Positions 7,679 through 41,366 of a stretch of DNA of 50,003 nt are shown here, in pieces. The notes beneath the pieces are model-generated. The model saw only the letters and a program-made list of their open reading frames with translations. It had not been told where the DNA came from and made no database searches. The DNA is taken from positions 1 through 50,003 of the forward strand of contig JAHFGY010000004.1 in assembly GCA_023247195.1 (NCBI GenBank), read 5' to 3'. Made by a program: the position numbers and the translations under genes. The stretch comes from Candidatus Omnitrophota bacterium. Lineage in GTDB: Bacteria > Omnitrophota > Gorgyraeia > Aquiviventales > Aquiviventaceae. The number at the start of each line of letters is the position of its first letter. Positions within the stretch are counted from its first letter, which is position 1.

Positions 7679-7709
7679 GGCCGAAATTTAAGTTCGACAG
7701 AATAAAGTA

Positions 7710-9431
7710 CTACAGCGACGGTGGGGTGTCAAGGAGCTTCCTGACCGCCCCTTCGGCTTGGGGAACCTCTACAGTGAGCTTGTCCCGGCTGGACCGGGAA
7801 CGGATCTCGACCTGGCCGCCCGCAAGCCAGGTCTTGCCGAAAATCACCTGAACCGGGATGCCGACCAGGTCCGCATCCTTCAGCTTGCTGCCGGGCGACT
7901 GCTGGCGGTCGTCCAAAAGCACTTCCAGACCCGAACCGGCCAGTTTTTCAGCCAGGTCTGTTCCGGCTTTGGCCATGTCCTGGTTGCCGGTTTCCATGAT
8001 CGTGATAATCGCGTCAAAAGGCGCCAGCGACCGCGGCCAGCGCAGGCCGTCTTTGTCGTTCAATTGTTCGATAGCCGATGCCAGCACACGGTTTACGCCA
8101 ATCCCATAGCAGCCCATGATCATGGGCTGCGAGCCGCCCGAGGCATCCTGGACCAAGGCTCCGAGCGCCTCGCTGTAGCGGGTGCCCAGCTTGAACACAT
8201 GGCCGACTTCAATGGCCTTGATCAGCTCAAGCTTTGCTTTACACTTGGGACAGACATCTTGATCCGTCACAAATCGAACGTCCGCAATGAGTTCCGGTTT
8301 TGCATCCCGGCCGATGTTTACATTCAGGGCGTGGGTTTCGGCTTTGTTAGCGCCCGCGACCGCGTTCACCACGGCGGCGGCAGCCGGATCGGCAACCAGC
8401 TTGGCGCCGTTCAGTCCAACCGGGCCGGCAAAACCGACCGGCGCGCCGCTGACCCGCTGGATCGTGGAAGCGGAGGCGAGCCGCAGCGCTTTGGCCTTGA
8501 GCACGCGCGCCAGTTTGGCTTCGTTCACTTCGTGATCGCCACGGACTAGGACAGCGATGACCTCCGAATCGGCTTCATAGATCAGGGTCTTGATAATCTG
8601 AGCGGGAGTCACGTTGAGAAACCGGCTGACCTGCTCCACGGTGTGCTGGCCGGGGGTTTGGACTTCCTTCATGGGCTCAGGCTGCGCGGATTTGGGATTC
8701 GGCTCAGGCGGCAGGCACTTGGCCGCTTCCAAATTCGCGGCATAGCCGCATGAAACACAGTGAGCGATGCGGTCTTCGCCAGCCTCCGAAGGCGCCATGA
8801 ATTCGTGGGACACATCCCCGCCCATGGCGCCCGAGTCCGCCTCGCAGGCCAGAACCTTGAGGCCGGCCCGGCTGAAAATGCGCTGATACGCGGCGTACAT
8901 CGCGTCATAACTCTTGCCGAGCCCTTCCCAACTGGAGTCAAAGCTGTAAGCGTCCTTCATGAGAAATTCTTTGGTGCGGATCACGCCGAAACGCGGGCGC
9001 GGCTCGTCGCGGAACTTGGTCTGGATCTGGTACAGAATCACGGGCAACTGTTTGTGCGAGCGCGCTTCCTTGGCGAGCTCGGTGATGACTTCTTCATGCG
9101 TGGGCGCGAGCACCACTTCCTTGCCGGTGCGGTCTTTGAAGCGGACCAAAACGTCGCCCATGATGTCGTAGCGGCCGGTGGCTTTCCAGAGCTCGACGGG
9201 CGTCATGGCAGGCAAGAACAGTTCTTGAGCGCCCGCGCGGTTCATCTCTTCGCGGATGATTGCCATGACTTTCTGCAGCGCGCGCAAGCCGAACGGCAGG
9301 TAGGCGTAGGTGCCGGAACCCACGCGGCGGACCAGCCCCGCCCGAACCATGAGCTTGTGGCTGATGGATTCGGAGTCCTTGGGGTCTTCACGAAGGGTGT
9401 TGAGGAAATACTGCGACCAGCGGGTGAGCAT
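7710..9431 (-). CDS. proS: Proline--tRNA ligase (bacterial type with editing insertion)
   Basis: 573 aa. The N-terminus MLTRWSQYFLNTLREDPKDSESISHKLMVRAGLVRR parallels E. coli ProS. Class II motifs and the INS domain region are present. Confidence 0.95.
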   Translation of the reverse strand: MLTRWSQYFLNTLREDPKDSESISHKLMVRAGLVRRVGSGTYAYLPFGLRALQKVMAIIREEMNRAGAQELFLPAMTPVELWKATGRYDIMGDVLVRFKDRTGKEVVLAPTHEEVITELAKEARSHKQLPVILYQIQTKFRDEPRPRFGVIRTKEFLMKDAYSFDSSWEGLGKSYDAMYAAYQRIFSRAGLKVLACEADSGAMGGDVSHEFMAPSEAGEDRIAHCVSCGYAANLEAAKCLPPEPNPKSAQPEPMKEVQTPGQHTVEQVSRFLNVTPAQIIKTLIYEADSEVIAVLVRGDHEVNEAKLARVLKAKALRLASASTIQRVSGAPVGFAGPVGLNGAKLVADPAAAAVVNAVAGANKAETHALNVNIGRDAKPELIADVRFVTDQDVCPKCKAKLELIKAIEVGHVFKLGTRYSEALGALVQDASGGSQPMIMGCYGIGVNRVLASAIEQLNDKDGLRWPRSLAPFDAIITIMETGNQDMAKAGTDLAEKLAGSGLEVLLDDRQQSPGSKLKDADLVGIPVQVIFGKTWLAGGQVEIRSRSSRDKLTVEVPQAEGAVRKLLDTPPSL

Positions 9432-9436
9432 TTGGG

Positions 9437-10540
9437 TCAGACAGCCGCAGCCGCGGGGCGCTCGTTGGCCACGCGCTGGACTTCTTCGAGGAGCGCGTCG
9501 ACCATTTCGGATTCAGCCACGCGGCGGATCTGCTTGCCCTTGCGGTAAATCACGCCGACCCCGCCGCCGCCGGCCATGCCCACATCCGCATGCTCCGACT
9601 CGCCGGGTCCGTTCACGACGCAGCCCATGACAGCGACGGTGAGCTGCAGGATGCGCGGGTCTCGCTCGCCCGCTTGCGTGAGCCGCTCCTGCACTTTCTT
9701 GGCAACGCCGACCACGTCGATCTCGCACCGGCCGCACGAAGGACAAGCAATGACATTGGTGGAAAACCGGCGTAGTTCCAGCGACGAGAGAATGCGGCGA
9801 GCCACGTCCACTTCATCGATCGGATCACCGGTGATCGACACGCGGATCGTGTCGCCGATGCCCTCGGCCAGCAGCGCGCCGATACCGATGGAAGACTTCA
9901 CGGTGGACGCTTCGATTAAGCCCGCTTCGGTCACGCCCAGGTGGAACGGGTAGTCGGTGAGCTCGCTCATGCGGCGGTACGCGCGGATCATCTGCACCAC
10001 ATCGGACGACTTGAGCGAGAGAATAATTTTGTCGAATCCAAAACTTTCCAGAAGCCGCACGGATTTGAGCGCGCTCTGCACGATCGCTTCGACCAAGTTG
10101 CCGCGGTGCTCCTCTTCACATTCCGGATCCAGCGAGCCGACGTTGACGCCGACGCGGATCGGAACACCGCGCTCCTTGGCGCGGTCCACTACTTCCCTGA
10201 CCCGCTTGGGATCGCGGATGTTGCCGGGGTTCCAGCGGATCTTGTCGAAGCCCGCTTCGATGGCGGCGATCGCGAACTGCGGATGAAAGTGGATGTCCGC
10301 GACGAGCGGCACCTTATCAGCTTCGCGGCGGATGCCGGCCAGCGCCTTCGACGCTTCGATCGTGGGCACGGCCACGCGCACAATCTCGCAGCCCGCGGTC
10401 GCGAGCGCGCGGATCTGGCGCACCGTGGCGGCCACGTCGGCGGTGTCGGTCTTGGTCATGGACTGGATCGAAATAGGCGCGTCGCCCCCGATCCCCAGAT
10501 GCTTTATCTTAATCGAACGCGTCTTACGGCGAACAATCAT
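9437..10540 (-). CDS. ispG: 4-hydroxy-3-methylbut-2-en-1-yl diphosphate synthase
   Basis: IGGDAPISIQSMTKTDT and the C-terminal Cys cluster (ACPSCGRC ... GCVVNGPGE) are present. The ATG at 10540 forms an ATGA overlap with the rseP stop; the track start at 10552 is an alternative. Confidence 0.9.
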   Translation of the reverse strand: MIVRRKTRSIKIKHLGIGGDAPISIQSMTKTDTADVAATVRQIRALATAGCEIVRVAVPTIEASKALAGIRREADKVPLVADIHFHPQFAIAAIEAGFDKIRWNPGNIRDPKRVREVVDRAKERGVPIRVGVNVGSLDPECEEEHRGNLVEAIVQSALKSVRLLESFGFDKIILSLKSSDVVQMIRAYRRMSELTDYPFHLGVTEAGLIEASTVKSSIGIGALLAEGIGDTIRVSITGDPIDEVDVARRILSSLELRRFSTNVIACPSCGRCEIDVVGVAKKVQERLTQAGERDPRILQLTVAVMGCVVNGPGESEHADVGMAGGGGVGVIYRKGKQIRRVAESEMVDALLEEVQRVANERPAAAAV

Positions 10541-29173: not shown

Positions 29174-30207
29174 TATTCGGATGTCCTCTTTCCCACGCGC
29201 GCGCTCTTCTGCGCTCGAATGCGCTCGCGCAGCTCGTCCGGCGTGACCGTGGCCACGCCTACCTTGCCCACGACCACGCCCGCGGCAAAGTTTGCCAACT
29301 GGGCGGCTACGGGCTTGGACGCGCCGCAGGCCAGGGCCAAGGTGTAGGTGCCGATCACGGTGTCGCCGGCGCCGGCCACGTCGAAAACCGCTTGCGCCAT
29401 GGTCGGAATCCACGTGCGGCGGCCGCCACGCTCGAACAAACAAATGCCATCTTCCCCGAGCGTAATGAGCAAGCTCTCGCAATCCAGCTTGCGCAAGATG
29501 ATCTCGCCCGCCTTGTCGATGTCAGCCTGCGTCTTGAGCTCGAACCCGGCCGCTTGCCCGGCCTCAAGCCGGTTCGGCGTGAGGCACGTGACGCGCTTAT
29601 ATAAGTGGAAATGCTCTTGTTTGGGATCAACGGTGATGATTTTCTTGTGCTTGCGCGCCAGAGGAATCACCGCGGCCAGCAATGCCCGGCTGATCACGCC
29701 CTTGTTGTAGTCTTCAAGGATGATAGCGTCCACGTCTTGGATGCGCTCGCGCACCTGATCCACCAGCCGATCGATCAAGTCGGCCGGCAGCGCGTCGGCT
29801 TGCTCGCGGTCCACGCGCACAACCTGCTGGTGGTGCGCGATCACGCGCGTCTTGACCGTGGTCGGACGGTCGGTGCGGATCATGGATGTGGCGTCGATCT
29901 GCCGCGACGCGAGCCCACCGATCAGCAGCTCGCCGTAACGGTCCGTGCCCACGGCGCCGACGACCGAAACCTGGCCGCCGAGCGCGCGGATGTTGTTCGC
30001 CACGTTCGCGGCGCCGCCCGGCATGGTGGACTCGGACTGCACCCAAACGACCGGCACCGGCGCCTCGGGGCTGATGCGGCTCACTTTGCCCCAGAGGAAC
30101 TCGTCGAGCATCATGTCGCCGATCACAAGGACGCGGGCCTTTTCAAAGCGCGCAAGCAAGCGATCCACGCCGGCTAGCGCGAGCGGCTTGGGCGAGGCGG
30201 CCATCAC
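29173..30207 (-). CDS. hldA: D-glycero-beta-D-manno-heptose-7-phosphate kinase (RfaE domain I, PfkB family)
   Basis: VLVIGDMMLDEFLWGKVSRISPEAPVPVV N-terminus and the C-terminal PfkB signature DVAGAGDTVIG. No adenylyltransferase domain is fused. Confidence 0.85.
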   Translation of the reverse strand: MMAASPKPLALAGVDRLLARFEKARVLVIGDMMLDEFLWGKVSRISPEAPVPVVWVQSESTMPGGAANVANNIRALGGQVSVVGAVGTDRYGELLIGGLASRQIDATSMIRTDRPTTVKTRVIAHHQQVVRVDREQADALPADLIDRLVDQVRERIQDVDAIILEDYNKGVISRALLAAVIPLARKHKKIITVDPKQEHFHLYKRVTCLTPNRLEAGQAAGFELKTQADIDKAGEIILRKLDCESLLITLGEDGICLFERGGRRTWIPTMAQAVFDVAGAGDTVIGTYTLALACGASKPVAAQLANFAAGVVVGKVGVATVTPDELRERIRAQKSARVGKRTSE

Positions 30208-31139
30208 AGCTGCTCCGCCACGGCGCGGATCAAGAGCGGTATCAAGATTTCGTGATGCCCGGTGATATGGATCCCGCGGCCACCCAAAAGCGTCGGGCGC
30301 TTGAGAACGTTCTCATGCGGGCGGTAATGCCGGATCATGTCGAAATCGAATGCGGTGAAGTCCTTGACGCTGCTGCCGAGGTTGCGCGCAATGGACACGG
30401 CTTTTAGGAACACCTCCGGCAGAATCACGGCCGAGCCCAGGTTTCCCACCACGCCGCCCTGCCCCAACTGCGAAACCACGCCGATCAAGGTGCGGAAGTC
30501 GTGCAGCGATGTTTGGCCGATGGCCGCGCCGTCCGCGGAAGATTGCTGGTGGATGATGTCCGTGCCGATCGCAACGTGCACGGTCGCGGGAACGTCCATT
30601 TCCACGCAAGTCGCAAGCAGGCTCAAGCGACGATACGGAAGCTTTTTCTTGATGATCATGTGCCCCACGCTGCGGCCAAGCCCCCAGCCTTTTTTCGCGC
30701 CGTCGCGGATCGCAGCATTAAGCGTGGCGTGCGTTTCTTCTGCCATACCGAAAGAGCCGTCGGCGAGCGCAGACGCCACATCCTCGGAGGTGCTTCCCAT
30801 GAACGCGAGCTCGAAATCATGGATAACGCCCGCGCCGTTGAGCGCGATGCCGGTCACGATCTTGCGCTTAATGAGGTCGGTGAGGAGGGGGCTGAGGCCT
30901 ACCTTAATAACGTGCGCGCCGAACATGAAAAGGACCGGCTTTTTCTGCTTATGCGCGGCCGCGATGGCTTCGACGATGTACCGCAAGTCTTTTGCGGCAA
31001 GGATATTCGGCAGGGATTCGTAGAATTCGCGGAAGGTTCCACCCTTACGGCAAGGCCTTGCAAAGCTATCAAAACTGACCTTGCTCTTCCTGGAAGCGAC
31101 CGGGTAGGTCTTGAGTTTTGCCAGGTCGGGCGTAGGCAC
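30204..31139 (-). CDS. Conserved hypothetical protein, tentatively deoxyhypusine-synthase-like (DHS-like NAD-binding fold)
   Basis: 311 aa. FMFGAHVIKVGLSPLLTDLIKRKIVTGIALNGAGVIHDFELAFMG and ...VPATVHVAIGTDIIHQ resemble, in spacing and pattern, the DHS family core (..ltsnlissGlr..i..li....vd.ivttaGa.eeDl...). This assignment is from memory only. The only available start is the GTG at 31139. There is a 4-nt overlap with hldA. Confidence 0.4.
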   Translation of the reverse strand: MPTPDLAKLKTYPVASRKSKVSFDSFARPCRKGGTFREFYESLPNILAAKDLRYIVEAIAAAHKQKKPVLFMFGAHVIKVGLSPLLTDLIKRKIVTGIALNGAGVIHDFELAFMGSTSEDVASALADGSFGMAEETHATLNAAIRDGAKKGWGLGRSVGHMIIKKKLPYRRLSLLATCVEMDVPATVHVAIGTDIIHQQSSADGAAIGQTSLHDFRTLIGVVSQLGQGGVVGNLGSAVILPEVFLKAVSIARNLGSSVKDFTAFDFDMIRHYRPHENVLKRPTLLGGRGIHITGHHEILIPLLIRAVAEQL

Positions 31140-31144
31140 GGCAA

Positions 31145-31173
31145 ATTCTAGCAGAGGCTTCCAGGAGTGTCAA
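31145..31173 (-). promoter_or_regulatory. Near-consensus sigma70 promoter positioned for a leaderless transcript of the DHS-like/heptose/Kdo operon
   Basis: The minus strand reads TTGACA (31173..31168), a 17-nt spacer, TAGAAT (31150..31145), then TTGCC and the GTG start codon (31139). Confidence 0.45.
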
Positions 31174-31229
31174 TTACACACTCGACGTGCCTGAAAGCGC
31201 TCCCTCCGCCTGACTTATATGGTATATTT

Positions 31230-31235
31230 TATAAT
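31230..31235 (+). promoter_or_regulatory. Candidate -10 box (TATAAT) for the giant-gene leader
   Basis: A perfect TATAAT lies in the AT-rich tract 31211..31247. I found no convincing -35 at 16-18 nt (the nearest TGACTT-like hexamer is too close). Confidence 0.3.
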
Positions 31236-31247
31236 CAATATGTAAGT

Positions 31248-31391
31248 ACCGCCAAAGGCAAACCTGCGGTAACGCAGGGACGTCCCGCAAGCTTTGCTTC
31301 GCAAAGCGGGCTCGCGGGACCCCGCACGAAACTTCGCGCGGTGAAGTCGCGGGGCAAAGCTTCGGATCCCTTCTATTCTATAGGGACTGCC
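31248..31391 (+). ncRNA. Structured 5' leader / candidate riboswitch (GEMM-I-like 5' half)
   Basis: AAAGGCAAACC (31254..31264) is followed by the hairpin CCUGCG-GUAA-CGCAGG (31263..31278) and then GACG. A long hairpin follows: GUCCCGC(31282-88)/GCGGGAC(31314-20), enclosing GCUUUGC-uuc-GCAAAGC (31291..31307). A further hairpin is CCCCGC(31320-25)/GCGGGG(31349-54), enclosing ACUUC/GAAGU. The CGCAAAGC octamer is at 31300..31307 and a second GCAAAGC at 31354..31360. Confidence 0.45.
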
Positions 31392-31419
31392 AGGCTGCCG
31401 AAAAACCGGCAGCCTTTTT
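31392..31419 (+). terminator. Intrinsic terminator-like hairpin 8 nt upstream of the giant-gene ATG (candidate attenuator / expression platform)
   Basis: AGGCUGCCG-aaaaac-CGGCAGCCU (a 9-bp GC-rich stem) followed by UUUU. The U-run is present only on the plus strand. No plus-strand gene lies upstream that it could terminate. Confidence 0.6.
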
Positions 31420-31427
31420 CCTATAAG

Positions 31428-31541
31428 ATGCTAACGACCTATCGAAGAACAGAATTCAGAAAATTTCTCAGCGTTGTCTTAGCGGGCGTCGTTGCGCTTT
31501 CCAACACGCCGCTTCTCCTCGCTGCGCCTTCATCCAGCAGC
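31428..31541 (+). other. Predicted N-terminal signal peptide or membrane anchor of the giant protein
   Basis: A basic n-region (RRTEFRK), a ~22-aa hydrophobic core (FLSVVLAGVVALSNTPLLLAA), then a Ser/Pro-rich stretch. Confidence 0.55.
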
Positions 31542-34500
31542 AGTCTGCTTGCGCCCAGTCCAGCCAGCCAACTGCCGGGCCTTGAGGTCGCTTCCCTGCT
31601 CGATGAATTAGACACCGCCTACGGTTTCCCGCAATACCAACTCACCAGCGATATCACGAGCAAGAAAACGACGCTGGCATTGCAATTCGATGCTAAAGGC
31701 CTTGCGGCTTTTCAGCAAAACTCCCGAGAGTCTACCGGCGCCCACCTAGGTCTGACCGCCCTTGTACTAGGCTTGGCGCGACAGTATGCCTGGCAGAATC
31801 ACGCGTTTGACGAAGTTATTCGGACGTACGCGCAGGATCGGCAAATGACCGCAGCGGAGACGCAACAACTGCTGGCGAACGAAGACATCCTGAGGCTTGT
31901 GCTCACACCCAATGCGTATCTGGAAATCCTCCAACAGGCTGTGGTGGATTCGGGTTTGTTTCAATGCATAGTAGCCGCTCCAGACGACACTCCACATGAC
32001 CAACTCACCGCTCTCCGTCGGACCCTCGCCGACGATCTGCGCGCTTTTTTTCCCGGCGCGACGGTGTCCGATAACTGGTATCGATTCGCCCCATCGCCGA
32101 ACAGGTCAACGGAAAATGAGCCGGCGATGCGATGGTCCGGTCGAGGACTCTCTCCCAAACAGCATGAGATCGTTGATACCGTCATTGGCGACTATTTTTC
32201 AGGCGAGCAGCCCGGCCCCCTAGCCACAGAGCTTGATCAACAATCTTACGAATACAGCTACCTGGATCCGGACGGAATACTTGCAGATGCCGGCGTGCGT
32301 ATTTTATTTCTTGAAGGCCTTCTGGAGCGCATCCGTGAGGCTTGCGAGGCGGAGGGAGAAGAATTTCCTGAAGACCTGGCCATTCACCCGGCCCGCCAAC
32401 ACCGGACGCTGCTGCTGGACCCGACTCAGCATGAAGCCATTGCAAGACAGCCTATTGAATGGCGCGGCCGGCTGGCCCGTCATGAGCTGGCGCACATTGA
32501 GCATCCGGAGCTGACCGAAGAGCAAATTCAAGCGGTAGCGGAATGGGCAATCGGAGAAACCGATCCCAATGCATCGATGAGCGCGGTGGAAATAAGCCGG
32601 TCAGAGGACTTTGCCGCCGCGATGCGGGGCGTACCGGGAGGCAGCTATTCAAATAGTCAGCTGGCGGCTGCAGCCGGAATCGCTCGAGGAACTTATTCGC
32701 GGGTGCTTGCTTCGGAAAAAATCCGCCGCATTCATCAGGAAAACGAGCGCCGCAAGCGCGAGCAAACCGGGCTCGCTCCAATTATTCTCATCGACGTAAG
32801 CAATGAAGAGCTCCGAGAACAAACGCTGCGGGCGATCGACGAGCACGTGTCCGATATTCCGCCCGGGGATCACTTTCTGACAGACCTAAGCTCGTACCTT
32901 CATATCACCGCCATGACGATACATAAGCACGAGGCTTATATTCTCGCAAAAATCGCGGAATTGAACGCGCAGAAGAAATTACGGGACGAGCCCACGATAA
33001 ACATTATTTCACGGGGCGTGGTATGGAGAGTTCAACAAGCGCTCCCTACGACGAAAGGTGGCTCCTACTATTGGACGCAGCTTGCTGATCTTTGGGGCAT
33101 CGGCTGGGTAAGCCTCCAGAACCATTTGAAAGAAATTGAAGATTTGCTGGCCGTTGAAAATGAGCGGCGGAAGGAGGATCCGAAGGCAGTTCCCATTGAA
33201 ATTTTAAAGGCACCTGCCGCGGGCAGCGTATTGCAGAGTTTTGCAGAGGGATTACCGAACGTGGATCCTGGGATTTACTCGTTGGGGCGGTTGGCCGAAT
33301 TGGCGGGCTCTAGCTACGAGGTGATTTACCAATATCGAGATGAAGCCGCCGAACTTGTTTCCGCCGAGAATATTCGCCGAAGCGGACTTGTCACCCCCAT
33401 ACGCCCTATTGAAATCCGAGAGCTCGGCGATATCTTGCCTCGTATCGCGGCAGCGCTTCCCGGCATCGCACCGGGTTCCTACAGCCTGACCGCCTTCGCA
33501 CAAGCGGTAGGCGTGAGCCAAACATCGATCACGACCAACCTCACCGAAGTACAGAATTTGCTCGCTGCCCACAATCACGCTCGATCCAGTGCGGCAATAT
33601 TCCTGGAATCTCCCGTGATTTTTGAGCGGCTTTTGCACGATTATGCACCGGCCTTGCAGGAAGGCTTGCTTAATGAGGATTGGCTGCGGCGAGCGTTCTC
33701 TGCCGGCCCTGCCGGCGTATCCGAGCTGCTGAGCGAGCTCACGGACAGCGGCACGGCGTCCTTATGCCGAGTGCTGGTTCTCGTTGAATTGTACCCCTTC
33801 CTATTTGAGCGGCTATACGTGGACATGGATGACACCCTCTTCACCTCTCCGCTATTCGTCGGCAGCGAAGCATGGATACGGAGCGAATACGCCCTGCATG
33901 GGCGGCCAATCAGCCATCTGAAGAATGAAAAACGGCGAATCGAAGGATGGTTGATCCACTCCGGCGTTCCGTTTCAGGCCGTTGAGCCTCTTGTGCCGGA
34001 AAAACTCCTGCAAATCCAGCAGCGCTACCCGCACATTCAGATCATTGGCCTGACGGCGCGGGGCCAAGAAGACAGGTCAAATACGGAGTCGATTCTCAAG
34101 CAATTGGGACTGAGCATCGAGATTTTATACGGCGGGTCAAGCTACGGCAAGCGCCAGCAATGGAATCAAGCACGTACGGCGGCCGGAAGGCTGCAGACAA
34201 GCGGCACCGCAAATGCGCAACCCGAATCAGAGTCAGACGAAACCGACTCCGACGAAGACCAAAGCGCGGCGCAACCGGAAGACACTACCAGCGGCCAAAA
34301 CGAGCAGGCGCGCCGATGGTGGGTGCTCCTCGATGACGGCCTGGACAGGCTGGCGAAAAAACCTCAGCGAGAGAGCTGGCTTGATGAGCAGATCGCTGCG
34401 GTGGGATACGCCCCTCCCATTCGTTATGACTGGAGCGCCTCTCGAGACCACATGCTTCAAGACCTCGAATCGGGCGACCTCATCTCCAGTTGGCGCTGGG

Positions 34501-37500
34501 CCATGGACGCTCTGGCGCTCCTCAAATATGAACCGGATACCCGCAGGCGCCTGGAAACGCTCGCTCAAATTCAGGCGCTGGTCGTTGAACCGGCCTTTGC
34601 CAGAATGCAGGCCGAGCAACCCCACCCCGATGAGGTCGAAGGCATCGACCGCTTGCTCGTTGGTTATGTCGAAGCGGTAACCGCGCTGCTCGCGCAAGGG
34701 CCCGCCGAGTTGGCTGAAACAGTCGGCATCGATTGGACGGAATATGTCGCCTATAGCGCCTTTCTTATCCTGATGCCGAATAACGCGGAAGATTTCACGA
34801 ACGCCTACATGAACGGGCTTCTTCCAATCCGCGAAGTTAGCCGCCAGAGCCGCGGGCTTCCGGAAGCAAACTACTTTATTGAGATGACGCCAGAGAACAT
34901 TTTCCTCTTCATGGAACCGCTGATCCGCTACCTGCGGACGGAGAAGCCGAGCCTCGTGGTACTCCCGGACACCGGCGCCCGCCCTTTTTTCGACCTGCTC
35001 AATAAGGTGATTGAAGCTGAGGGGCTCCCGACAAAATTGCTGATTTTTCCGATAAGCCGGAACACGGCCAGCGACACTCTCTATGAGCTCAAGCTTTGGA
35101 TGACCAGCCAGCAAACCCGCTTCACAAGATTATTCCAAGGCATCGATCCTTCGGGTGTGGCCGGAAAGGATGTCGTGATCTTGGATGACAACATTACTTC
35201 AGGCGAGACGATTCTCATGCTCCAAACGCTTCTTAAGGACGTGTGGGGTGCAGGGACGATCGTAGGACTCACGCCGTTTGCGTACAGGCGAGGTTACCCC
35301 TTCCCGTTTATCGCCACATGCGTCTTGCCGGCTCAAGGTTTTGCATGGAGGCGCCAAAACCCGCCCGTCGTGGTGATCACACCCTGGGAGAATTCCCCCA
35401 CGTTGCGCGGTGCGGCCAGCCGCTCGCGATTTGAACGGCCGCCCGTCAAGCTAATACAAAGCCCGAAAAACCAAGCCGCGGCCATTGAGCGTTTGCAACA
35501 ATTTATGGGGGCGTACGGGGCCTCGAATAGGGATTTGACACTGACGCTCAAAGAGACGGCGGAAGAGCCTTTCCCCTTTATGGAAATCGCTGGCTCTTCT
35601 CAGAGCGCGGAGCCGTCTCCGTCGGAAGCGGAAAGATCGGAATCGATCGTGGCTATCCCTATCTCCAACTCCGTGGAACTTCGTGAGCTTGGACGCCGGC
35701 TCCCCGGATGGGTTCGCACGGAGTATGCGCTCACAAAGGAAGAGTTGCCGCATGCCACGGAACCCGGAACCATGCTCTACGAGATCTGGGACAAACAAAC
35801 GGATGAGCCGCTCGGATTGTGCATTCTCCTATGGGTCTGGGATGAGAATAATAACCGCAATATCCTGATCCGGAAAATTCAGCCCCGGATAGATGCCGAT
35901 GATCGAGTGGATCCGGTCCAGCTCATCGAAGGCATCCGCAACTGGCTAGAGACCGAACCCATCGACCTGCACGCGCTCCTGATCGATGCGAACAGCATCA
36001 CAATGACCCGGGTCTCGGAGTCGCACCGGGTCCGGGCGCTGATCAATGACGCCTATGCCTCGCATCCCAGGGTGCGCGACCAATTGACAACCCAGGGCTA
36101 TGCGCATCCGTGGATAGGCCAAGCCAATGTTGTTTTCATAAAACGGCTCACGCCAGAAGAAAGAGCGCGGATAGCCGAAGGAAGGGCGCTGCTTGAAAAT
36201 ATCAGCCAATCGCGCTTGAACCGCATTCTTCACCCTGATTTGCTGTCGCAATTCAATGATGCGTCCATCCTTTTGAATAGCGGGCTTCCTCCCAGCGAGG
36301 AGGACCTTGCCCTTCTGCGCGTCTTGCAAAGGCATGACGCGCTGTTGCGATACGCGGCTTCCGCAGAAGCCAAGCGTAATCCTGAACAACTGGAACGATA
36401 CGGCACACGCATTCTTTATGACTCGCTTGTCGAGGCTTCAGAGCTTTCCGGCGAGCGCTTGAGCTTTCCGGAAGGCTTTTTTGAAGGGGATTACGGGCGG
36501 GTTCGAGCGGAGGAAGCATTCCTGTACTACATCCAAAATATTTGGGAGGACGGGTACCACCTCGGCCAATTGCGAACCGCGGATTTGCGCCAATACGGGC
36601 TGGGTCCCGCCCTACGGCTCCATTTCAATAATGACCGCGGAGCTCTGATCGAGTTTCTCTGCCCGGGAGGTTACGTCCAATCCGGAAAAAACCGGTACCG
36701 CCCAAATCCTGAACAAGAGGTGACATCCAGGATGTGGGCGCACTTCATGGCGGGCGAATGGTGGACGATCGCTCCCGGAGCGCGGTATACGCTCAAGGCA
36801 AATGACAAAGCGGGCGATCGCTATCGAGGCCTGGTAGCTTCATTCGAGGTGAACGCGAATCATGGGCCGATCGCGATCCTGCGGGATGTGGCCGGCGTTG
36901 AACACGCTATAGCGCATCAAGTTGACCAAAGTCACGTGGCTTCCACCTCGGTTCGTCTTGCGAAATATCGGCTATTCAAACGAAAATCCACCGCGGGACC
37001 GCTATTAGCCGCACTCAATATCCACCGTTGGCTGGCGGGCCACCACATCCAGGTTTCCGCGGAAATGCAGCCCGTCACAATGCCCTCTCAGCAGGTGAAC
37101 CAACTCATGAGGTGGCGATCCGTCAAGGGCGTCAATAAACTCTATAATCCCGCCGTTAGTCTGGTGCCCGAGCAAGATCCAGCCTTGGGAACGGTTTTGA
37201 GAATTTATGCGCCTCAGCCCGGTAAGGAACTTGCCGAAGCAGACTTGGTCGGTATCTGTTTCCGCGACTCGAATGGAGTGATCATCTATGAAACCCTCGC
37301 GGAACAACTGGGGGCGGTTGATATCGACGCCTGGATTCGCGGGCTACCTGTCACTCCCCTGGCGCGCAGCGGCAATTTCTTTCGACTGAGCCAAACCGGT
37401 CAACTACTCGCTCAGCTTCCGGGGAATCGGAAAAGCCGTCCGGTTTCCGTGGATAGCAGCTATGCCAATCAAATCGTTTTTGCCCGCCTTGAAAATCATG

Positions 37501-40500
37501 CGGCCTACGGAACCCTTTTAGCCGTCTATCCTGTTGATCCAACAACGGGGATAGTGCAGAGCAACCAAAGGATCCGTGCCTACGCCTGGGTTGAGGATGA
37601 GCTGCGGGCATTGGCCGGAGGGATTGTTCCATACGAAGAACAGTTTCCTACCCCCTCACCGGAGTTCTCATCGGATGAGGCTCAGTCAAAAGAAGGGGAT
37701 CACCCCGATGAAGCAGTCTCGCTTCCTGAGCCGCGGGAGGGAGACGCGGTCCGCGCAGAGCGAGGAGGTGTTTGGAGAAACACGACTATTCTTCGCATTG
37801 TCCCGGGGAAGTATATATTTGTTTCATGGAGAAATGTCGAACTCGGCATACCGTGGGAGAAAATTCAAACCCATCTTCAAAGAGCGGACGGAAGCCCGCT
37901 TATGCAATCTGAGGAAAGCAGTCCCGAGACGGATTCGGCCGCATCGGCTCCTCCGGAAGAAACACTGCTCCTTTCCCAGGTTGCTTTTAGCGATTCATCC
38001 ACCGGAGAAAAAATCGTATCTCTCCTTGCTGATAAGGACATCCGGACAGTCGCGGATCTTCTCGCCCGCGGGGCCGATCCGTTTATTGCCGTTGATGATG
38101 GCTATGCTCTTAACCGGGATGATTGGCAGGAATTGGACCTCGCCCTGGGCTTGCTCGGCGCTCCGATCCTTATGGATCCCGCAGCCACGGCCGATTCAGA
38201 TTCAACCGAGTCTCTTCCCATCCAGGGGCCCCTGCGCAAGTCGCGCGTGATTTACGGACTTTGGAGGCTGCATATTCTCAGCCTGTCCGAACTGGCACAC
38301 CGATTCGATAGGGCGCGCCCTGCCCTGGCCGCATCCCTCAGCCCCGATGAACTGCTCCGCGTTGAAGATTGGCTAACAGAACAAGGCTACGCAATCGTCT
38401 CTGAGCCAGTTGAACCGGCATATCTGCCAAGCCACCAGACATTCTCCACAAGCCGGATCAGAAGAATGATTCAAGCCATTCTGCCTGATTTTCCAGGCGG
38501 CGAATTCACTTACAAGGAATTCTCGGAATTGACGGGGATTGATCCCGCAACGATCAGCACTAACCGCGTCCTTATCGACCAATTGGTCGCCGCAGAAAAT
38601 GCGATCCGTGAGCGAGCCAGCCGGCAAACCATCCGCTTGGGAGAAGATATCCTGCAAAAGATTGAGGGTTTATTGCCTGAGACCCCCGGAGGGGAATATA
38701 CGCTGAAGGACTTGGGCGGGCTGTGGGGGCTATCGCCCCCGACGCTGGCGAAATACAGAGAAGAAATAGACTTGCTGGTGGAACAAGAGAACAACGACCC
38801 CGGAAGAGAAAGCCCCGAGGATGAGATCCAACTCTATGAGCCAGACCCTCTTGTCCGTATTGCGGCGGCATTCAAAGAAGTCCGGGGAGGAACGTACTCG
38901 GCCGAAAAACTGGCAAGAGCCCTTCATACCGCCTTACCAACCTTCAACAAATATGAGGCTGAAATTCTGGCTTTACTCGAGAAAGAGAATGAGTCGCTGA
39001 AGACCCAGGGAAAGCCACAAATTGAATATCGCCCCCGAGCTGTTCTCAAAAGAATCCGGGCTGACTTGCCGAACCTGCCCGGGGGCAACTACTCCATCAA
39101 GAGCTTCTCGGAGGCCATGGTGATAACAAGATCGAGCGTGCCAAAATTTGAGCCTGAAATCCAAGCGATGATCATAGAAGTGAACGCCTTGCGAAAAGAA
39201 CAACAGCGCACAGACTTTATCCACTTATCGGCGCAACCCGCGGTGAATACGTCAGAAATTCTATTCGACGAAATTATACAGAGAATTTCTACAATTCCCG
39301 CCGGCGAATATACCTGGTCAGGTCTTGCTAGGGAATTGAAGGCGGGCAAGGGCTATGTTATTGGAAAACAGAAAAAACTGACGACTGTTATAGCTGCTGA
39401 TAATGTTGCCCGCGAGAAACGCAACGAGGGCCCTATCGTGATAATCGCTCCTGATCGCATGGAGGACCTTGCGGCACGATTACCAAAGGTGCAGGGTAAG
39501 GTATACCAAATGAAGGATTTCGCGGAAGCGGTGGGCATTTCTCAAAGCGTGCTCAATAGGCACAGCACCGAAGTCGATGCGCTCCTGCTCACTGACAACA
39601 TCCGGCGTAAAGCAGCAAACGAGCCGGAAATCGCCCTCTGGGAGCAGGATTCTTTTTTGAAAATCGAGCAGCTAATCCCCTCCCTTGCGGGCGGCTGGTA
39701 CTCATTTGATGATCTAGCGGAACTCGTCCATGCGCATCGAAAAACGCTTGCCAGTTATGCGGATGAGATTGAACGTCTCATGGGTGCCGAGAATCTGAAG
39801 CGTCGCCAAGCCGGGCGCAAGGATTTTATTTTCTTGTTACGAAAACCTGTTTTACCGCGTGTGAGGCAAGTTCTTCCTTGGCTGGACGGAGGGACTTATT
39901 CGTGGGAAGACCTGGCGGCCGCCACAGGGCTGGAAGCCAAGACTCTTTCATATAATTACCGCGACGCAGTCTTGGAGATCATTGCGGCTGAGAATCTGAA
40001 CCGGTCACCGGATAATCAGATCATTTTGCTATCGAAGCAATCTCCTTCTTCCCAAGCGCTCGCGGGACGATTCGACGGAGCCGACCTACGCCAGGCGGAG
40101 CCGATCGAAGACGCTGAAACAACCCAGCTTATCGATGCGGCCGGCGTTATTTCAGAGAACTTCAAAGACGTGCTTGGCGGGGTCGAAGCCGAGCTCCCGG
40201 CGCTCCAGCAGCAGACGGATCAGCAAGAGGAGCCTCTCTCCGGAAAGAAAAAGCTGACGTTTAAGCTCGTGGCTTTCCGGAATGCGGCAGGCGAGATTGA
40301 GGCCCGCGGACCTTACATCCAGCGCACCGGTTCGGTGATCTACTTGAACGCCGGGCGCGCTGACCTGAGCGTAGAAAACAAGCGGAGAGCGCTGAAGCAC
40401 GACATCATCGGTCATGACTGGCAGCTCTTAATGGATACTTTGGGCTACGCATCTCCGGAGAAAATTCCGCATGCCATTGCCGAGGCGTTCGGCCTCTATA

Positions 40501-41366
40501 TGGGCGAGTTTTCGGATATATCTGATACCGAGGAGCGCATTGAACTCGTGCTAGCCATTCTGGAGCAGAGGCTGGGGATGGTTATCCCTGTGAATGGAGA
40601 ACCGGCGTCAATGACAGCCGCTCCTTCTCAGGCTGACTTCTGTCCCTCGCTGCTGCATTCGAGAAACCCCACCCGCGCCCTGCCCCGCCATGAAATTGCG
40701 GATGCGCTTCGGAAGCTGCCCGATATCCAGACTTTGTACATTGAACATGCCAACCCGATTACAGCGACGAGCATCCGGAACAAACTTTTGAACACTGGCT
40801 TAACGCATATCCGGCAGCTGGAAGAGCTGACACCGGAAGAACTCAATGCCCTACTGGGTCGCAGGGCGGATGAAGCTGCAGTGATGGCTATTGAAGCGGC
40901 TCTGCAAAGGCTCGGCAAATCACTCAGCGCCTTCGACTCTATCGACACGTTGAAAATTCCCGGGACCTCGGACCGTCAGCGCACGCGTCTGCTAATCATT
41001 CTCAAATCAAATGGCATCCTGACGATTCCCAAGCTGCTGGAAACGCCCGACGCCAAATTGGAAGGTATTCTTGCGGGGGCTTCAATGATCGGTGAAACAC
41101 CGATTAACTATCTGATGCTGCGGATCCGAGAGCTTAGGGATGCCACCCCGATGAAACCTTCATCCACGCAAGCGGCGATGATTCATGTGGGTGTGAACGC
41201 GACCGGGATACCTTCCTTCAGCGCTGAAGGGCAGTCGGAACTGGATCAACTGCTTGCGCAGATGTGCAGCAGCTTGAACAACACCATGGAAAATCCGACA
41301 GAAGACCTGGAACTGCTGATCAAGAACTGGCAAAGGCAGCGCGAAGAAATCGAATCAAGCGGCTAG
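31428..41366 (+). CDS. Giant (~3,312 aa) mosaic protein of unknown function with signal peptide/anchor, HExxH motif, 13 HTH-like repeats, HAD-like, PRTase-like and alphaCTD-like HhH modules
   Basis: An uninterrupted ORF is open from 31167. I chose the ATG at 31428 because it is followed directly by a signal-peptide-like sequence (MLTTYRRTEFRKFLSVVLAGVVALSNTPLLLAAPSSSS). The region upstream contains promoter elements and RNA hairpins. No Shine-Dalgarno is evident, so the start is uncertain. The stop TAG is at 41364..41366. Confidence 0.85.
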   Translation: MLTTYRRTEFRKFLSVVLAGVVALSNTPLLLAAPSSSSSLLAPSPASQLPGLEVASLLDELDTAYGFPQYQLTSDITSKKTTLALQFDAKGLAAFQQNSRESTGAHLGLTALVLGLARQYAWQNHAFDEVIRTYAQDRQMTAAETQQLLANEDILRLVLTPNAYLEILQQAVVDSGLFQCIVAAPDDTPHDQLTALRRTLADDLRAFFPGATVSDNWYRFAPSPNRSTENEPAMRWSGRGLSPKQHEIVDTVIGDYFSGEQPGPLATELDQQSYEYSYLDPDGILADAGVRILFLEGLLERIREACEAEGEEFPEDLAIHPARQHRTLLLDPTQHEAIARQPIEWRGRLARHELAHIEHPELTEEQIQAVAEWAIGETDPNASMSAVEISRSEDFAAAMRGVPGGSYSNSQLAAAAGIARGTYSRVLASEKIRRIHQENERRKREQTGLAPIILIDVSNEELREQTLRAIDEHVSDIPPGDHFLTDLSSYLHITAMTIHKHEAYILAKIAELNAQKKLRDEPTINIISRGVVWRVQQALPTTKGGSYYWTQLADLWGIGWVSLQNHLKEIEDLLAVENERRKEDPKAVPIEILKAPAAGSVLQSFAEGLPNVDPGIYSLGRLAELAGSSYEVIYQYRDEAAELVSAENIRRSGLVTPIRPIEIRELGDILPRIAAALPGIAPGSYSLTAFAQAVGVSQTSITTNLTEVQNLLAAHNHARSSAAIFLESPVIFERLLHDYAPALQEGLLNEDWLRRAFSAGPAGVSELLSELTDSGTASLCRVLVLVELYPFLFERLYVDMDDTLFTSPLFVGSEAWIRSEYALHGRPISHLKNEKRRIEGWLIHSGVPFQAVEPLVPEKLLQIQQRYPHIQIIGLTARGQEDRSNTESILKQLGLSIEILYGGSSYGKRQQWNQARTAAGRLQTSGTANAQPESESDETDSDEDQSAAQPEDTTSGQNEQARRWWVLLDDGLDRLAKKPQRESWLDEQIAAVGYAPPIRYDWSASRDHMLQDLESGDLISSWRWAMDALALLKYEPDTRRRLETLAQIQALVVEPAFARMQAEQPHPDEVEGIDRLLVGYVEAVTALLAQGPAELAETVGIDWTEYVAYSAFLILMPNNAEDFTNAYMNGLLPIREVSRQSRGLPEANYFIEMTPENIFLFMEPLIRYLRTEKPSLVVLPDTGARPFFDLLNKVIEAEGLPTKLLIFPISRNTASDTLYELKLWMTSQQTRFTRLFQGIDPSGVAGKDVVILDDNITSGETILMLQTLLKDVWGAGTIVGLTPFAYRRGYPFPFIATCVLPAQGFAWRRQNPPVVVITPWENSPTLRGAASRSRFERPPVKLIQSPKNQAAAIERLQQFMGAYGASNRDLTLTLKETAEEPFPFMEIAGSSQSAEPSPSEAERSESIVAIPISNSVELRELGRRLPGWVRTEYALTKEELPHATEPGTMLYEIWDKQTDEPLGLCILLWVWDENNNRNILIRKIQPRIDADDRVDPVQLIEGIRNWLETEPIDLHALLIDANSITMTRVSESHRVRALINDAYASHPRVRDQLTTQGYAHPWIGQANVVFIKRLTPEERARIAEGRALLENISQSRLNRILHPDLLSQFNDASILLNSGLPPSEEDLALLRVLQRHDALLRYAASAEAKRNPEQLERYGTRILYDSLVEASELSGERLSFPEGFFEGDYGRVRAEEAFLYYIQNIWEDGYHLGQLRTADLRQYGLGPALRLHFNNDRGALIEFLCPGGYVQSGKNRYRPNPEQEVTSRMWAHFMAGEWWTIAPGARYTLKANDKAGDRYRGLVASFEVNANHGPIAILRDVAGVEHAIAHQVDQSHVASTSVRLAKYRLFKRKSTAGPLLAALNIHRWLAGHHIQVSAEMQPVTMPSQQVNQLMRWRSVKGVNKLYNPAVSLVPEQDPALGTVLRIYAPQPGKELAEADLVGICFRDSNGVIIYETLAEQLGAVDIDAWIRGLPVTPLARSGNFFRLSQTGQLLAQLPGNRKSRPVSVDSSYANQIVFARLENHAAYGTLLAVYPVDPTTGIVQSNQRIRAYAWVEDELRALAGGIVPYEEQFPTPSPEFSSDEAQSKEGDHPDEAVSLPEPREGDAVRAERGGVWRNTTILRIVPGKYIFVSWRNVELGIPWEKIQTHLQRADGSPLMQSEESSPETDSAASAPPEETLLLSQVAFSDSSTGEKIVSLLADKDIRTVADLLARGADPFIAVDDGYALNRDDWQELDLALGLLGAPILMDPAATADSDSTESLPIQGPLRKSRVIYGLWRLHILSLSELAHRFDRARPALAASLSPDELLRVEDWLTEQGYAIVSEPVEPAYLPSHQTFSTSRIRRMIQAILPDFPGGEFTYKEFSELTGIDPATISTNRVLIDQLVAAENAIRERASRQTIRLGEDILQKIEGLLPETPGGEYTLKDLGGLWGLSPPTLAKYREEIDLLVEQENNDPGRESPEDEIQLYEPDPLVRIAAAFKEVRGGTYSAEKLARALHTALPTFNKYEAEILALLEKENESLKTQGKPQIEYRPRAVLKRIRADLPNLPGGNYSIKSFSEAMVITRSSVPKFEPEIQAMIIEVNALRKEQQRTDFIHLSAQPAVNTSEILFDEIIQRISTIPAGEYTWSGLARELKAGKGYVIGKQKKLTTVIAADNVAREKRNEGPIVIIAPDRMEDLAARLPKVQGKVYQMKDFAEAVGISQSVLNRHSTEVDALLLTDNIRRKAANEPEIALWEQDSFLKIEQLIPSLAGGWYSFDDLAELVHAHRKTLASYADEIERLMGAENLKRRQAGRKDFIFLLRKPVLPRVRQVLPWLDGGTYSWEDLAAATGLEAKTLSYNYRDAVLEIIAAENLNRSPDNQIILLSKQSPSSQALAGRFDGADLRQAEPIEDAETTQLIDAAGVISENFKDVLGGVEAELPALQQQTDQQEEPLSGKKKLTFKLVAFRNAAGEIEARGPYIQRTGSVIYLNAGRADLSVENKRRALKHDIIGHDWQLLMDTLGYASPEKIPHAIAEAFGLYMGEFSDISDTEERIELVLAILEQRLGMVIPVNGEPASMTAAPSQADFCPSLLHSRNPTRALPRHEIADALRKLPDIQTLYIEHANPITATSIRNKLLNTGLTHIRQLEELTPEELNALLGRRADEAAVMAIEAALQRLGKSLSAFDSIDTLKIPGTSDRQRTRLLIILKSNGILTIPKLLETPDAKLEGILAGASMIGETPINYLMLRIRELRDATPMKPSSTQAAMIHVGVNATGIPSFSAEGQSELDQLLAQMCSSLNNTMENPTEDLELLIKNWQRQREEIESSG
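32481..32495 (+). other. HExxH motif (HELAH) within the giant protein
   Basis: The context is WRGRLARHELAHIEHPELTEEQ (ORF aa 439-443). This is a bare motif with no recognised surrounding peptidase fold. Confidence 0.3.
32610..33611 (+). repeat. Array 1: five tandem ~65-aa HTH-like protein repeats (R1-R5)
   Basis: The units contain GVPGGSYSNSQLAAAAGIARGTYSRVL..IHQENERRK; IPPGDHFLTDLSSYLHITAMTIHKHEAYILAKIAELNAQKK; TKGGSYYWTQLADLWGIGWVSLQNHLKEIEDLLAVENERRK; VDPGIYSLGRLAELAGSSYEVIYQYRDEAAELVSAENIRR; and IAPGSYSLTAFAQAVGVSQTSITTNLTEVQNLLAAHNHAR. Confidence 0.8.
33804..34361 (+). other. HAD-superfamily-like module in the giant protein
   Basis: Motif I is YVDMDDTLF (DxDxT, aa 886-890). Motif II is IIGLTARG. 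A Lys is present in YGKRQ. Motif IV-like is WWVLLDDGLD. An acidic Ser/Asp/Glu linker (ESESDETDSDEDQ) is inserted before motif IV. Confidence 0.55.
34950..35291 (+). other. Type-I phosphoribosyltransferase-like module in the giant protein
   Basis: A canonical PRPP-binding loop, GKDVVILDDNITSGETILML (aa 1333-1352, nt 35172..35210 for VVILDDNITSGET), is preceded by LVVLPDTGARPFFDLL (PPi-loop-like). Confidence 0.6.
37983..38402 (+). other. Two RpoA-alphaCTD-like helix-hairpin-helix modules (central)
   Basis: STGEKIVSLLADKDIRTVADLLARG...DDWQELDLALGLLG and SRVIYGLWRLHILSLSELAHRF...LSPDELLRVEDWLTEQGY follow the pattern x-R-x-x-N-x-L-x-x-x-x-I-x-T-hxxL...eL..h...G..s..ei...L...Gh. Confidence 0.4.
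38451..40037 (+). repeat. Array 2: eight tandem ~65-aa HTH-like protein repeats (R6-R13)
   Basis: For example LPDFPGGEFTYKEFSELTGIDPATISTNRVLIDQLVAAENAIRE; LPETPGGEYTLKDLGGLWGLSPPTLAKYREEIDLLVEQEN; EVRGGTYSAEKLARALHTALPTFNKYEAEILALLEKENE; LPNLPGGNYSIKSFSEAMVITRSSVPKFEPEIQAMIIEVNALRK; IPAGEYTWSGLARELKAGKGYVIGKQKKLTTVIAADNVAREKR; VQGKVYQMKDFAEAVGISQSVLNRHSTEVDALLLTDNIRRK; LAGGWYSFDDLAELVHAHRKTLASYADEIERLMGAENLKRR; and LDGGTYSWEDLAAATGLEAKTLSYNYRDAVLEIIAAENLNR. Confidence 0.85.
40674..41141 (+). other. Two RpoA-alphaCTD-like helix-hairpin-helix modules (C-terminal)
   Basis: ITATSIRNKLLNTGLTHIRQLEELTPEELNALLGRRADEAAVMAIEAALQRLGKSL closely parallels the alphaCTD pattern (..svRsaNcLk.agI.tigdLv.kteeeLl.i.nfGkkSl.EIkekL.elGlsL). 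A second copy is LKIPGTSDRQRTRLLIILKSNGILTIPKLLETPDAKLEGILAG. Confidence 0.55.

Follow-up and report, generated by a model that had tools for sequence, protein, structure and literature searches.

The window analysed here is the whole 50,003-nt stretch of contig JAHFGY010000004.1 (assembly GCA_023247195.1) from a Candidatus Omnitrophota bacterium, and the subject is the leader of the giant gene that it contains. The gene has 3,312 codons, is the only plus-strand gene in the window, and sits between a GT9 gene and a gene for a deoxyhypusine-synthase-like (DHS-like) protein. An initial annotation had described the 5' half of the leader as resembling the class I riboswitch for cyclic di-guanosine monophosphate (c-di-GMP), known as GEMM-I, and had noted an intrinsic terminator at the other end. 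It had also stated that no plus-strand gene lies upstream for the terminator to act on, and the sole upstream gene is indeed on the minus strand (30204-31139). All of the sequence elements that it listed are found where it had placed them, and a terminator scan confirms the terminator 8 nt before the ATG. The features of the leader are given below with the evidence for each in brackets. P1 to P3 are the helices of the aptamer, hpA and hpB are hairpins, L001 is a contig of a close relative with its own leader at this site, and MFE stands for minimum free energy.

31220-31235, plus strand: candidate promoter -10 elements, an extended -10 TGGTATATT at 31220-31228 and TATAAT at 31230-31235 (sequence)
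31250-31282, plus strand: 5' half of the aptamer (Rfam alignment, our covariance model, 94% identity to L001, family alignment)
31254-31264, plus strand: AAAGGCAAACC motif (sequence)
31263-31278, plus strand: P2 hairpin, with a 6-bp stem CCUGCG/CGCAGG at 31263-31268/31273-31278 and a GUAA loop at 31269-31272 (sequence)
31277-31282, plus strand: GGGACG (sequence)
31283-31354, plus strand: 72-nt insertion, composed of hairpins hpA (31283-31319) and hpB (31320-31354) (folding, profile hidden Markov model, comparison with relatives)
31289-31302/31349-31362, plus strand: competing long-range helix of 14 nt, 86% complementary, the core of the MFE fold (repeat search, MFE and prefix folds)
31293-31297, plus strand: UUUGC, complementary both to GCAA at 31287-31290 and to GCAAA at 31301-31305 (sequence)
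31300-31307, plus strand: first CGCAAAGC (sequence)
31354-31360, plus strand: second GCAAAGC (sequence)
31355-31400, plus strand: 3' half of the aptamer (covariance-model match at 31322-31405, constrained fold, deletion alignment)
31374-31386/31418-31430, plus strand: predicted helix around the terminator in which the AUG is also paired, made of UAUAGG/CCUAUA and adjoining bases (MFE fold of 31240-31430)
31392-31419, plus strand: intrinsic terminator, AGGCUGCCG, loop AAAAAC, CGGCAGCCU and U-run (terminator scan)
31428-41366, plus strand: the regulated gene (open reading frame list, translation, Pfam, homologues)

The leader has candidate promoter elements at one end and a terminator at the other. 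TATAAT is kept in L001, no -35 match accompanies it, and a consensus scan gave no plus-strand sigma-70 hit. Motifs comparable to TGGTATATT, namely TGGTATAAT and TGGTATACT, are found upstream of related leaders in L007, L008, L009, and L012. Seven of the nine pairs in the terminator stem (31392-31400/31407-31415) are G-C; the stem closes a loop of 6 nt and is followed by a run of U residues that ends at 31419, 8 nt before the ATG at 31428. The MFE of the leader has a z-score of -4.8 relative to shuffled controls.

Rfam covariance models match the leader to the c-di-GMP-I clan, with scores below the curated thresholds. An E-value scan of Rfam gives one clan match, to RF03167 (c-di-GMP-I-GGC), at 31248-31403 on the plus strand; it scores 31.5 bits, where the gathering score is 59. 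The E-value of this match is 9.6e-6 when 341 nt are searched and 0.0014 for all 50 kb versus 4227 families, and this signal is beyond chance though sub-threshold. The leader does not reach the gathering score of RF01051 either, which is 35 bits, the RF03167 score being the best in the clan. In the Infernal search of Rfam that the initial annotation proposed, the gathering thresholds are missed and a sub-threshold clan match falls exactly on the leader. Ten related aptamers, each above a curated Rfam threshold, were then used to make a covariance model of our own, which was run without filters. It matches the leader twice, at 31246-31307 (34.8 bits) and at 31322-31405 (22.0 bits, E about 9e-5), while its top score elsewhere in the window is 13.5 bits. 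Within the ten-aptamer family, 91.9% of cells are paired compared with at most 41% in slid controls, and eight pairs show compensatory changes; the observed values were reached by none of 500 shuffles. Covariation, another check that had been proposed, strongly supports the family, while for the interrupted form described below there are no diverged copies to which it could be applied.

The closest comparison comes from a group of five loci (L001, L002, L011, L014, and L016, from ENA, JGI, and NCBI assemblies, e.g. OBEQ010737677.1 and GCA_900206355.1) that represent a close relative. L002 is labelled as a groundwater metagenome. In this relative the neighbor protein is 98% identical and the divergent arrangement of the genes is the same. 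The L001 leader scores 60.8 bits with RF01051, well over the gathering score, and 58.1 bits with RF03167, and it carries the canonical GGGACGCAAAG. The DNA of the window is 92-94% identical to the L001 group over the promoter and the 5' half of the aptamer, and this similarity ends precisely at base 31282, the last base of GGGACG. A second segment, 31383-31419, with the 3' strand of P3 and the terminator, is 87% identical. The sequence between these segments and the sequence downstream are unalignable. In addition, positions 31258-31282 are identical in nine aptamers that score above a curated threshold. Homology to an RF01051-passing leader at the same site, together with the overlap of aptamer and terminator that the two leaders share, supports the earlier assignment to c-di-GMP-I. 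The riboswitch ancestry and the overall architecture of the leader are nearly certain. The explanation that we favor, and consider probable, is a class I c-di-GMP riboswitch with a complete but interrupted aptamer, a transcription-termination platform, and ON logic.

The aptamer appears to be whole, and the simplest description of its sequence is that a precise insertion of 72 nt (31283-31354) separates GGGACG from CAAAG. Residues are named below by the last digits of their window positions (312xx or 313xx), as in G57 and C355, and are equated with residues of Vc2, the archetype of the class from Vibrio cholerae, in the numbering of PMC3764141. In the 5' half, the 5' strand of P1 is CG at 31250-31251, J1/2 ends in G57 (G20 of Vc2), G58 and C59 belong to the basal pairs of P2, and GGGACG contains C81 (C44) and G82 (G45). 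In the 3' half, C355 is C46, A356-A358 are A47-A49, and the bulged G389 is G83. P3 is formed by 31358-31370 and 31383-31396 with a 12-nt loop, J3/1 consists of G397 and C398 (C92), and C399 and G400 are the 3' strand of P1. The insertion site therefore falls between G45 and C46, inside the two-pair basal helix of P2. The resulting P3 is compact, CAAAG-CUUCGGAUCCC, 12 nt, GGGACUGCCAGGCU (31355-31396), and is homologous to CAAAG-UCCAGGGUCC...GGGACAGCCAGGCU of the relative.

Removal of the insertion restores a regular aptamer. After in silico removal of 31283-31354 the leader fits the family alignment column by column and keeps 29 of 29 invariant columns, and 19 of 21 consensus pairs form, compared with 16-21 in family members. 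In a profile hidden Markov model (HMM; nhmmer) built without L001 and without the window, the deletion construct scores 54.6 bits over its full length and L001 scores 44.7 bits. The native leader gives two partial matches (28.5 and 13.5 bits) that abut at HMM position 37/38. Folded alone, the 72 nt have an MFE of -37.5 kcal/mol (z -2.7), with hpA and hpB arranged end to end: the first and last bases of the insertion are paired and none is unpaired between the hairpins. The fold constrained to contain the aptamer is compatible with the 3' half at 31355-31400. The insertion is absent from L001, L026, L015, and the other relatives, and the ten related aptamers are contiguous at GGGACG-CAAAG. We suggest that the leader is missed by the curated thresholds because its sensor is split in this way.

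This interpretation accounts for a difficulty in the initial annotation, which had described the match to GEMM-I as imperfect and limited to the 5' half. The 5' half was correctly recognized, but the 3' half is also there. The imperfection is real and is explained by the insertion, and the true J2/3 and start of P3 lie at the second GCAAAGC (31354-31360) rather than at the first CGCAAAGC. The first CGCAAAGC (31300-31307) was considered as the functional junction, as a global alignment also suggests, and was rejected, as the strand that follows it forms only about three pairs with the conserved 3' strand. The idea that the insertion is a repeated palindromic element was also rejected, since CCCGC-N18-30-GCGGG is no more frequent in the window than expected by chance and a blastn-short search with 31283-31392 gives no further copy in the window or in L001-L014.

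Few other copies of the interrupted form were found. A metagenome scan with the 26-mer P2 core found 10 loci, none of them interrupted, and a search for diverged copies with our covariance model found only L026, which is uninterrupted, among 86 loci. A second carrier is the strain variant P0121 (ENA ERZ27296333 contig), as judged from the translation of the leader frame, which is identical to that of the window except for the codon before the ATG.

The nucleotides known to be conserved or to contact the ligand in Vc2 (PMC3764141, PMC4744006) are present in the interrupted aptamer. With the insertion set aside, the leader has G20, C22, A23, A25, G32, A35, G42, C44, G45, A47-A49, the bulged G83, and C92. 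The ligand contacts G20, A47/A48, and C92 correspond to G57, A356/A357, and C398, and all of these are in invariant columns of the alignment. P2 has its GNRA loop and its internal loop (C22, A23, and A25 opposite G42, C44, and G45). P3, the bulged G389, and a 2-bp P1 are present, but the junction contains two extra helices and is not three-way. The element lies in a 5' leader on the sense strand, and its expression platform overlaps the aptamer. Riboswitches for c-AMP-GMP (cGAMP), or GEMM-Ib, are marked by an A instead of G at position 20, a criterion that reportedly goes back to work by Kellenberger and by Nelson in 2015. The leader has G57 at this position, so its ligand is predicted to be c-di-GMP rather than cGAMP.

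The proposed mechanism is based on the overlap of aptamer and terminator. All nine bases of the terminator 5' arm (A392-G400) belong to the aptamer: 31392-31396 are in the 3' strand of P3, G397 and C398 form J3/1, and C399 and G400 are in P1. The same overlap is found in L001 (terminator 9803-9779, aptamer 9893-9793) and in L026 (terminator 1213-1244, aptamer 1139-1229). Because the 3' strand of the aptamer doubles as the 5' arm of the terminator, ligand binding is expected to lead to read-through. The c-di-GMP-bound aptamer would hold the 3' strand of P3, J3/1, and the 3' strand of P1 (31383-31400), and with its 5' arm occupied the terminator would be blocked, allowing RNA polymerase to enter the giant gene. 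Without ligand, the 5' arm would pair with 31407-31415 and transcription would stop 8 nt before the ATG. The hairpins hpA and hpB would form co-transcriptionally and keep the core competent for assembly, and the helix 31289-31302/31349-31362 may be the ligand-free competitor. This ON switch predicts that giant genes are expressed at high c-di-GMP. The predicted helix 31374-31386/31418-31430 overlaps the 3' strand of P3, and in this fold model ligand binding might also free the start codon. The codon immediately before the ATG differs in the strain variant (K87A).

Whether the interrupted copy still binds c-di-GMP and retains control is a separate question, and judged from the sequence the chances appear about even. 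Several observations weigh against a working sensor, or against this description of it. G45 and C46, which are contiguous in the class, are separated by 72 nt. The insertion adjoins the ligand pocket and parts G21-C46 from C22-G45, and the latter pair receives the A-minor contact of A49 (PMC3764141). No Rfam family reaches its gathering score anywhere in the window, and the Rfam alignment itself is different, since it opens the P3 loop for an insertion of 84 nt and has nucleotides other than A in J2/3. Constraining the fold to contain the aptamer costs 14.9 kcal/mol relative to the MFE (-56.5 versus -71.4 kcal/mol), compared with a gap of 6.2 kcal/mol in the orthologue, and with the terminator included the MFE fold excludes the aptamer by about 29 kcal/mol. 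The competing helix, which sequesters CAAAGCUU, i.e. J2/3 and the 5' strand of P3, becomes the MFE structure once 31362 is transcribed. Finally, there is only one other known copy of the variant, and it is at the strain level (P0121, 7 of 3399 residues differ).

These observations lead to the most serious alternative, that the leader is a decayed riboswitch. It would be descended from GEMM-I, its sensing abolished by the insertion and the competing helix, and its terminator would be constitutive, leaving the giant gene silent or expressed through leaky read-through or another factor. Besides the low Rfam scores, the position of the insertion beside the pocket, the folding energies, and the confinement of the variant to one lineage, this explanation is favored by the lack of a Shine-Dalgarno sequence before the ATG (UUUUUCCUAUAAGAUG), in contrast to L001 (GGAG) and L026 (GAGGAGG). 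On the other hand, all of the invariant core nucleotides are kept. P3 still pairs despite changes at five of 15 bases in its 5' strand; relative to L001 there are two one-sided changes that preserve pairing and one disruptive change. The insertion closes on itself exactly, as it should if closure of the core is still required, and in two strains the 10-kb reading frame is unbroken, which speaks for expression. The order of folding is also relevant. Prefix folds show P2, then hpA, and then hpB as the MFE structure of the nascent RNA up to 31354, and when the competing helix first becomes possible it gains only 1-5 kcal/mol, so the local aptamer-compatible hairpins should form first. The same folds and the repeat search bear out the mutually exclusive helices of the initial annotation, in the form of a GCAAAGC/GCUUUGC competition. 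Overall we regard decay as unlikely, though it is the alternative that survives best.

The insertion could also have arisen from a tandem aptamer or an internal partial duplication, which would be compatible with either functional state. The insert would then contain the decayed 3' half of a first aptamer, with the first CGCAAAGC as a decoy, and the decayed 5' half of a second, represented by the CACGAAA...GUGA hairpin. Our covariance model does align 31322-31405 end to end as a second aptamer with 22 bits (E about 9e-5), CGCAAAG is present twice, and global alignment can match 31300-31354 to J2/3-P3 of L001. Tandem c-di-GMP-I riboswitches are known (PMC4759541). However, it is the genuine 3' half that contributes the bulk of the 22 bits, GGCAAAC is missing from the presumed second 5' half, the strand after the first CGCAAAGC is a poor partner for the conserved 3' strand, and no relative has a tandem arrangement. 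This origin seems improbable.

A different architecture is implied by the Rfam alignment, which is the top cmscan result. The leader would be of the c-di-GMP-I-GGC type, with J2/3 formed by G87-C88(-A89), P3 by 31290-31300 and 31385-31396, and 84 nt inserted in the loop, and its ligand specificity would possibly be altered. Eight of ten P3 pairs are possible in this arrangement. However, the constrained fold has an energy of -39.3 kcal/mol compared with the MFE of -71.4 kcal/mol, a cost of 32 kcal/mol, and the corresponding construct scores 34.5 bits in the profile HMM compared with 54.6 for the 72-nt deletion; the alignment was rejected on these grounds. It also lacks A47 and A48, and the orthologue carries the canonical GGGACGCAAAG. 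The alignment was probably chosen because covariance models penalize insertions in stems more than those in variable loops. The insertion model does not give an RF03167 variant: in addition to the low score, the position after C46 is A356 and not G. We consider the Rfam-implied architecture very unlikely.

There is hardly any chance that the leader is coding, as an N-terminal extension from the GTG at 31167, or is an independent terminated small RNA gene: the frame is open from 31167, P0121 (3399 aa) is called from the equivalent GTG, and a promoter followed by a terminator could define an RNA of about 180 nt, but riboswitch homology spans the stretch, a signal-peptide-like N-terminus starts at M88 (ATG 31428), L001 has a different gene after the same leader with its start called past the terminator, and a terminator 8 nt before the ATG leaves no room for a separate promoter. 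The coding reading was rejected on these grounds. The calling of the giant reading frame 87 codons too long, through the riboswitch (31167-31427), is likely a systematic mis-annotation that stems from the chance absence of stop codons from this frame of the leader.

The interrupted leader belongs to a known riboswitch class, within which its structure is new. It shares with RF01051/GEMM-I the AAAGGCAAACC motif with G20, P2 with its GNRA loop, GGGACG (C44, G45), CAAAG (C46, A47-A49), a P3 whose bulged G is the partner of C44, a J3/1 with C92, and a short P1. It differs in that the 72-nt insert makes the three-way junction formally five-way and in scoring under the gathering threshold. To our knowledge, no described GEMM-I member has an insertion between G45 and C46. 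Of the Rfam models, RF03167 gives the highest score with the window and also with several GC-rich relatives, but its consensus has a G after GGGACGC. At that position L001 has an A, as does the window when the insertion model is applied, and both then carry the canonical G20/A47/C92 set. The GGC variant is said to be named after positions 20/47/92, in work by Weinberg et al. in PNAS in 2017.

The class I riboswitches of Bacillus thuringiensis are a functional parallel (PMC4933901, PMC4759541, PMC11218506). Among them, Bc2 is described upstream of a collagen adhesion protein, Bc1 with a long platform with terminators, and Bc3-5 as a triple tandem. Like the leader in the window, these are class I elements in 5' untranslated regions that use terminators to control genes whose large products are secreted or located at the surface, and they provide a precedent for long platforms and for tandems. 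They differ in belonging to another phylum and in having uninterrupted aptamers, and none of those described lies before a gene longer than 3,000 codons. In Omnitrophota, giant genes have been tied to c-di-GMP only through nearby pilZ genes and through GGDEF domains near or within giant genes (bioRxiv 10.1101/2023.11.21.568195). Riboswitches are not mentioned in the Omnitrophota literature on giant genes that was examined.

The leader and the giant gene form an island at a site that is variable among relatives. In L003 and L004, where the neighbor protein is 83% identical, the GT9 and DHS-like genes are adjacent with nothing between them, which identifies the leader and giant gene as an island. 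The backbone around it is 87-92% identical in DNA to L001 and L016, whereas the island itself (31140-41366) is hypervariable. The L001 group has its leader at the same site between the DHS-like and GT9 genes, with the same terminator stem, P3 3' strand, and terminator-overlap design. It differs in lacking the 72-nt insertion, in having a longer P3 (a 31-nt distal part versus the 12-nt loop of the window), and in having an extra 494-codon gene before a giant gene of 4,069 codons, with giant proteins only 38-44% identical to that of the window. The extra gene of L001 and L016 has no Pfam match.

A third type of cargo is found in L026, an Omnitrophota metagenome-assembled genome (MAG; CAYJRJ010000001.1). 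It has a GEMM-I riboswitch at the same GT9/DHS-like site, and the 3' strand again serves as the 5' arm of the terminator. However, its island is in the opposite orientation, its aptamer is canonical and uninterrupted (79.4 bits with our model), and its cargo is a surface protein of 812 residues with Big_9 (Ig-like), cadherin-like, and PD40 domains. The site looks like a hot spot for cargo controlled by c-di-GMP riboswitches. A giant homologue elsewhere, P0123 (2,773 residues, many HTH domains), in locus L015, also has a GEMM-I leader (59.9 bits), and the giant homologues P0127, P0128, and P0133 have no GEMM-I within 2.5 kb upstream. In L015 a near-threshold match to the DUF3800-V RNA (10259-10349, plus strand, 32 bits versus a gathering score of 37.4) lies beside a DUF3800 gene directly downstream of the giant homologue.

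The P2 core of the leader is shared beyond this site. The identical 26-nt sequence GGCAAACCTGCGGTAACGCAGGGACG occurs in eight further metagenome loci (L005-L010, L012, and L013, with L005 and L013 being one sequence), which have unrelated promoters, P3 stems, and downstream genes. Those tested (L005-L010 and L012) all reach a curated gathering score, that of RF01051 or of RF03167. The pattern suggests either convergence on a single P2 sequence or its strong conservation.

The giant protein has a signal-peptide-like N-terminus and almost no Pfam domains, apart from a weak DUF2608 region. It contains many HTH-like repeats of about 60 residues (..GG.YS...LA...G.S.......EI..L...EN..R..) and a phosphoribosyltransferase-like motif, VVILDDNITSGETI. 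The relatives P0123 and P0133 have HTH_3/19/31, Pribosyltran, and SNF2 domains. The suggestion that a c-di-GMP riboswitch would suit a large surface or matrix protein is consistent with the signal-peptide-like start, but there is no recognizable adhesin and the repeats are HTH-like. An exhaustive HMMER search found 46 relatives of the protein. Its first 600 residues had no match in a word-indexed search or in a first scan of genome contigs. The strain variant P0121 differs at only those few residues noted above, over its whole length.

The rest of the window carries housekeeping and lipopolysaccharide (LPS)-core genes, including infB, nusA, proS, purA, serA, pyrG, kdsB, and GT9 heptosyltransferases. 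The divergent DHS-like neighbor (30204-31139, minus strand) has thousands of homologues. Those that are named, like the best matches among genomes (identity of 80% or less), belong to Candidatus Omnitrophota MAGs, most of them recovered from groundwater; an exact-sequence look-up of the protein gave no match. A strong sigma-70-like promoter of this gene lies at 31145-31173 on the minus strand (TTGACA, 17-nt spacer, TAGAAT, 11 of 12 matches, with TG), and it is also present in L001. Its mRNA may be leaderless, because the promoter ends about 6 nt before the GTG at 31139. A weak match to the speF leader at 7694-7799 on the minus strand (19.4 bits versus a gathering score of 37, E 0.85) falls over the 3' end of a 573-codon proS-like reading frame (7710-9431, minus strand) and is probably due to chance.

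Taken together, the leader and its relatives suggest a wider model, which we put forward tentatively and at somewhat less than an even chance. The leader would be a functional GEMM-I riboswitch with a five-way junction and a two-hairpin insert, in which the insert, with its decoy GCAAAGC and the competing helix, acts as a kinetic gate that tightens the OFF state of the giant gene. More widely, hypervariable cargo genes of Omnitrophota, some of them 3,000-4,000 codons long, would be under the control of c-di-GMP riboswitches at a hot spot for integration within the LPS-core cluster.

The interrupted leader has implications for the detection of riboswitches and for the biology of the phylum. Curated covariance-model thresholds can miss riboswitch descendants that have a domain inserted in a stem, and this one was rescued by comparison of orthologous sites. 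If the copy is dead, it is an ordinary decayed riboswitch. If it binds its ligand, additional helices can be accommodated between G45 and C46 of the GEMM-I junction, which would bear on riboswitch structural biology and engineering. For Omnitrophota, an uncultured phylum, the leader offers evidence at the RNA level that c-di-GMP controls very large secreted proteins.

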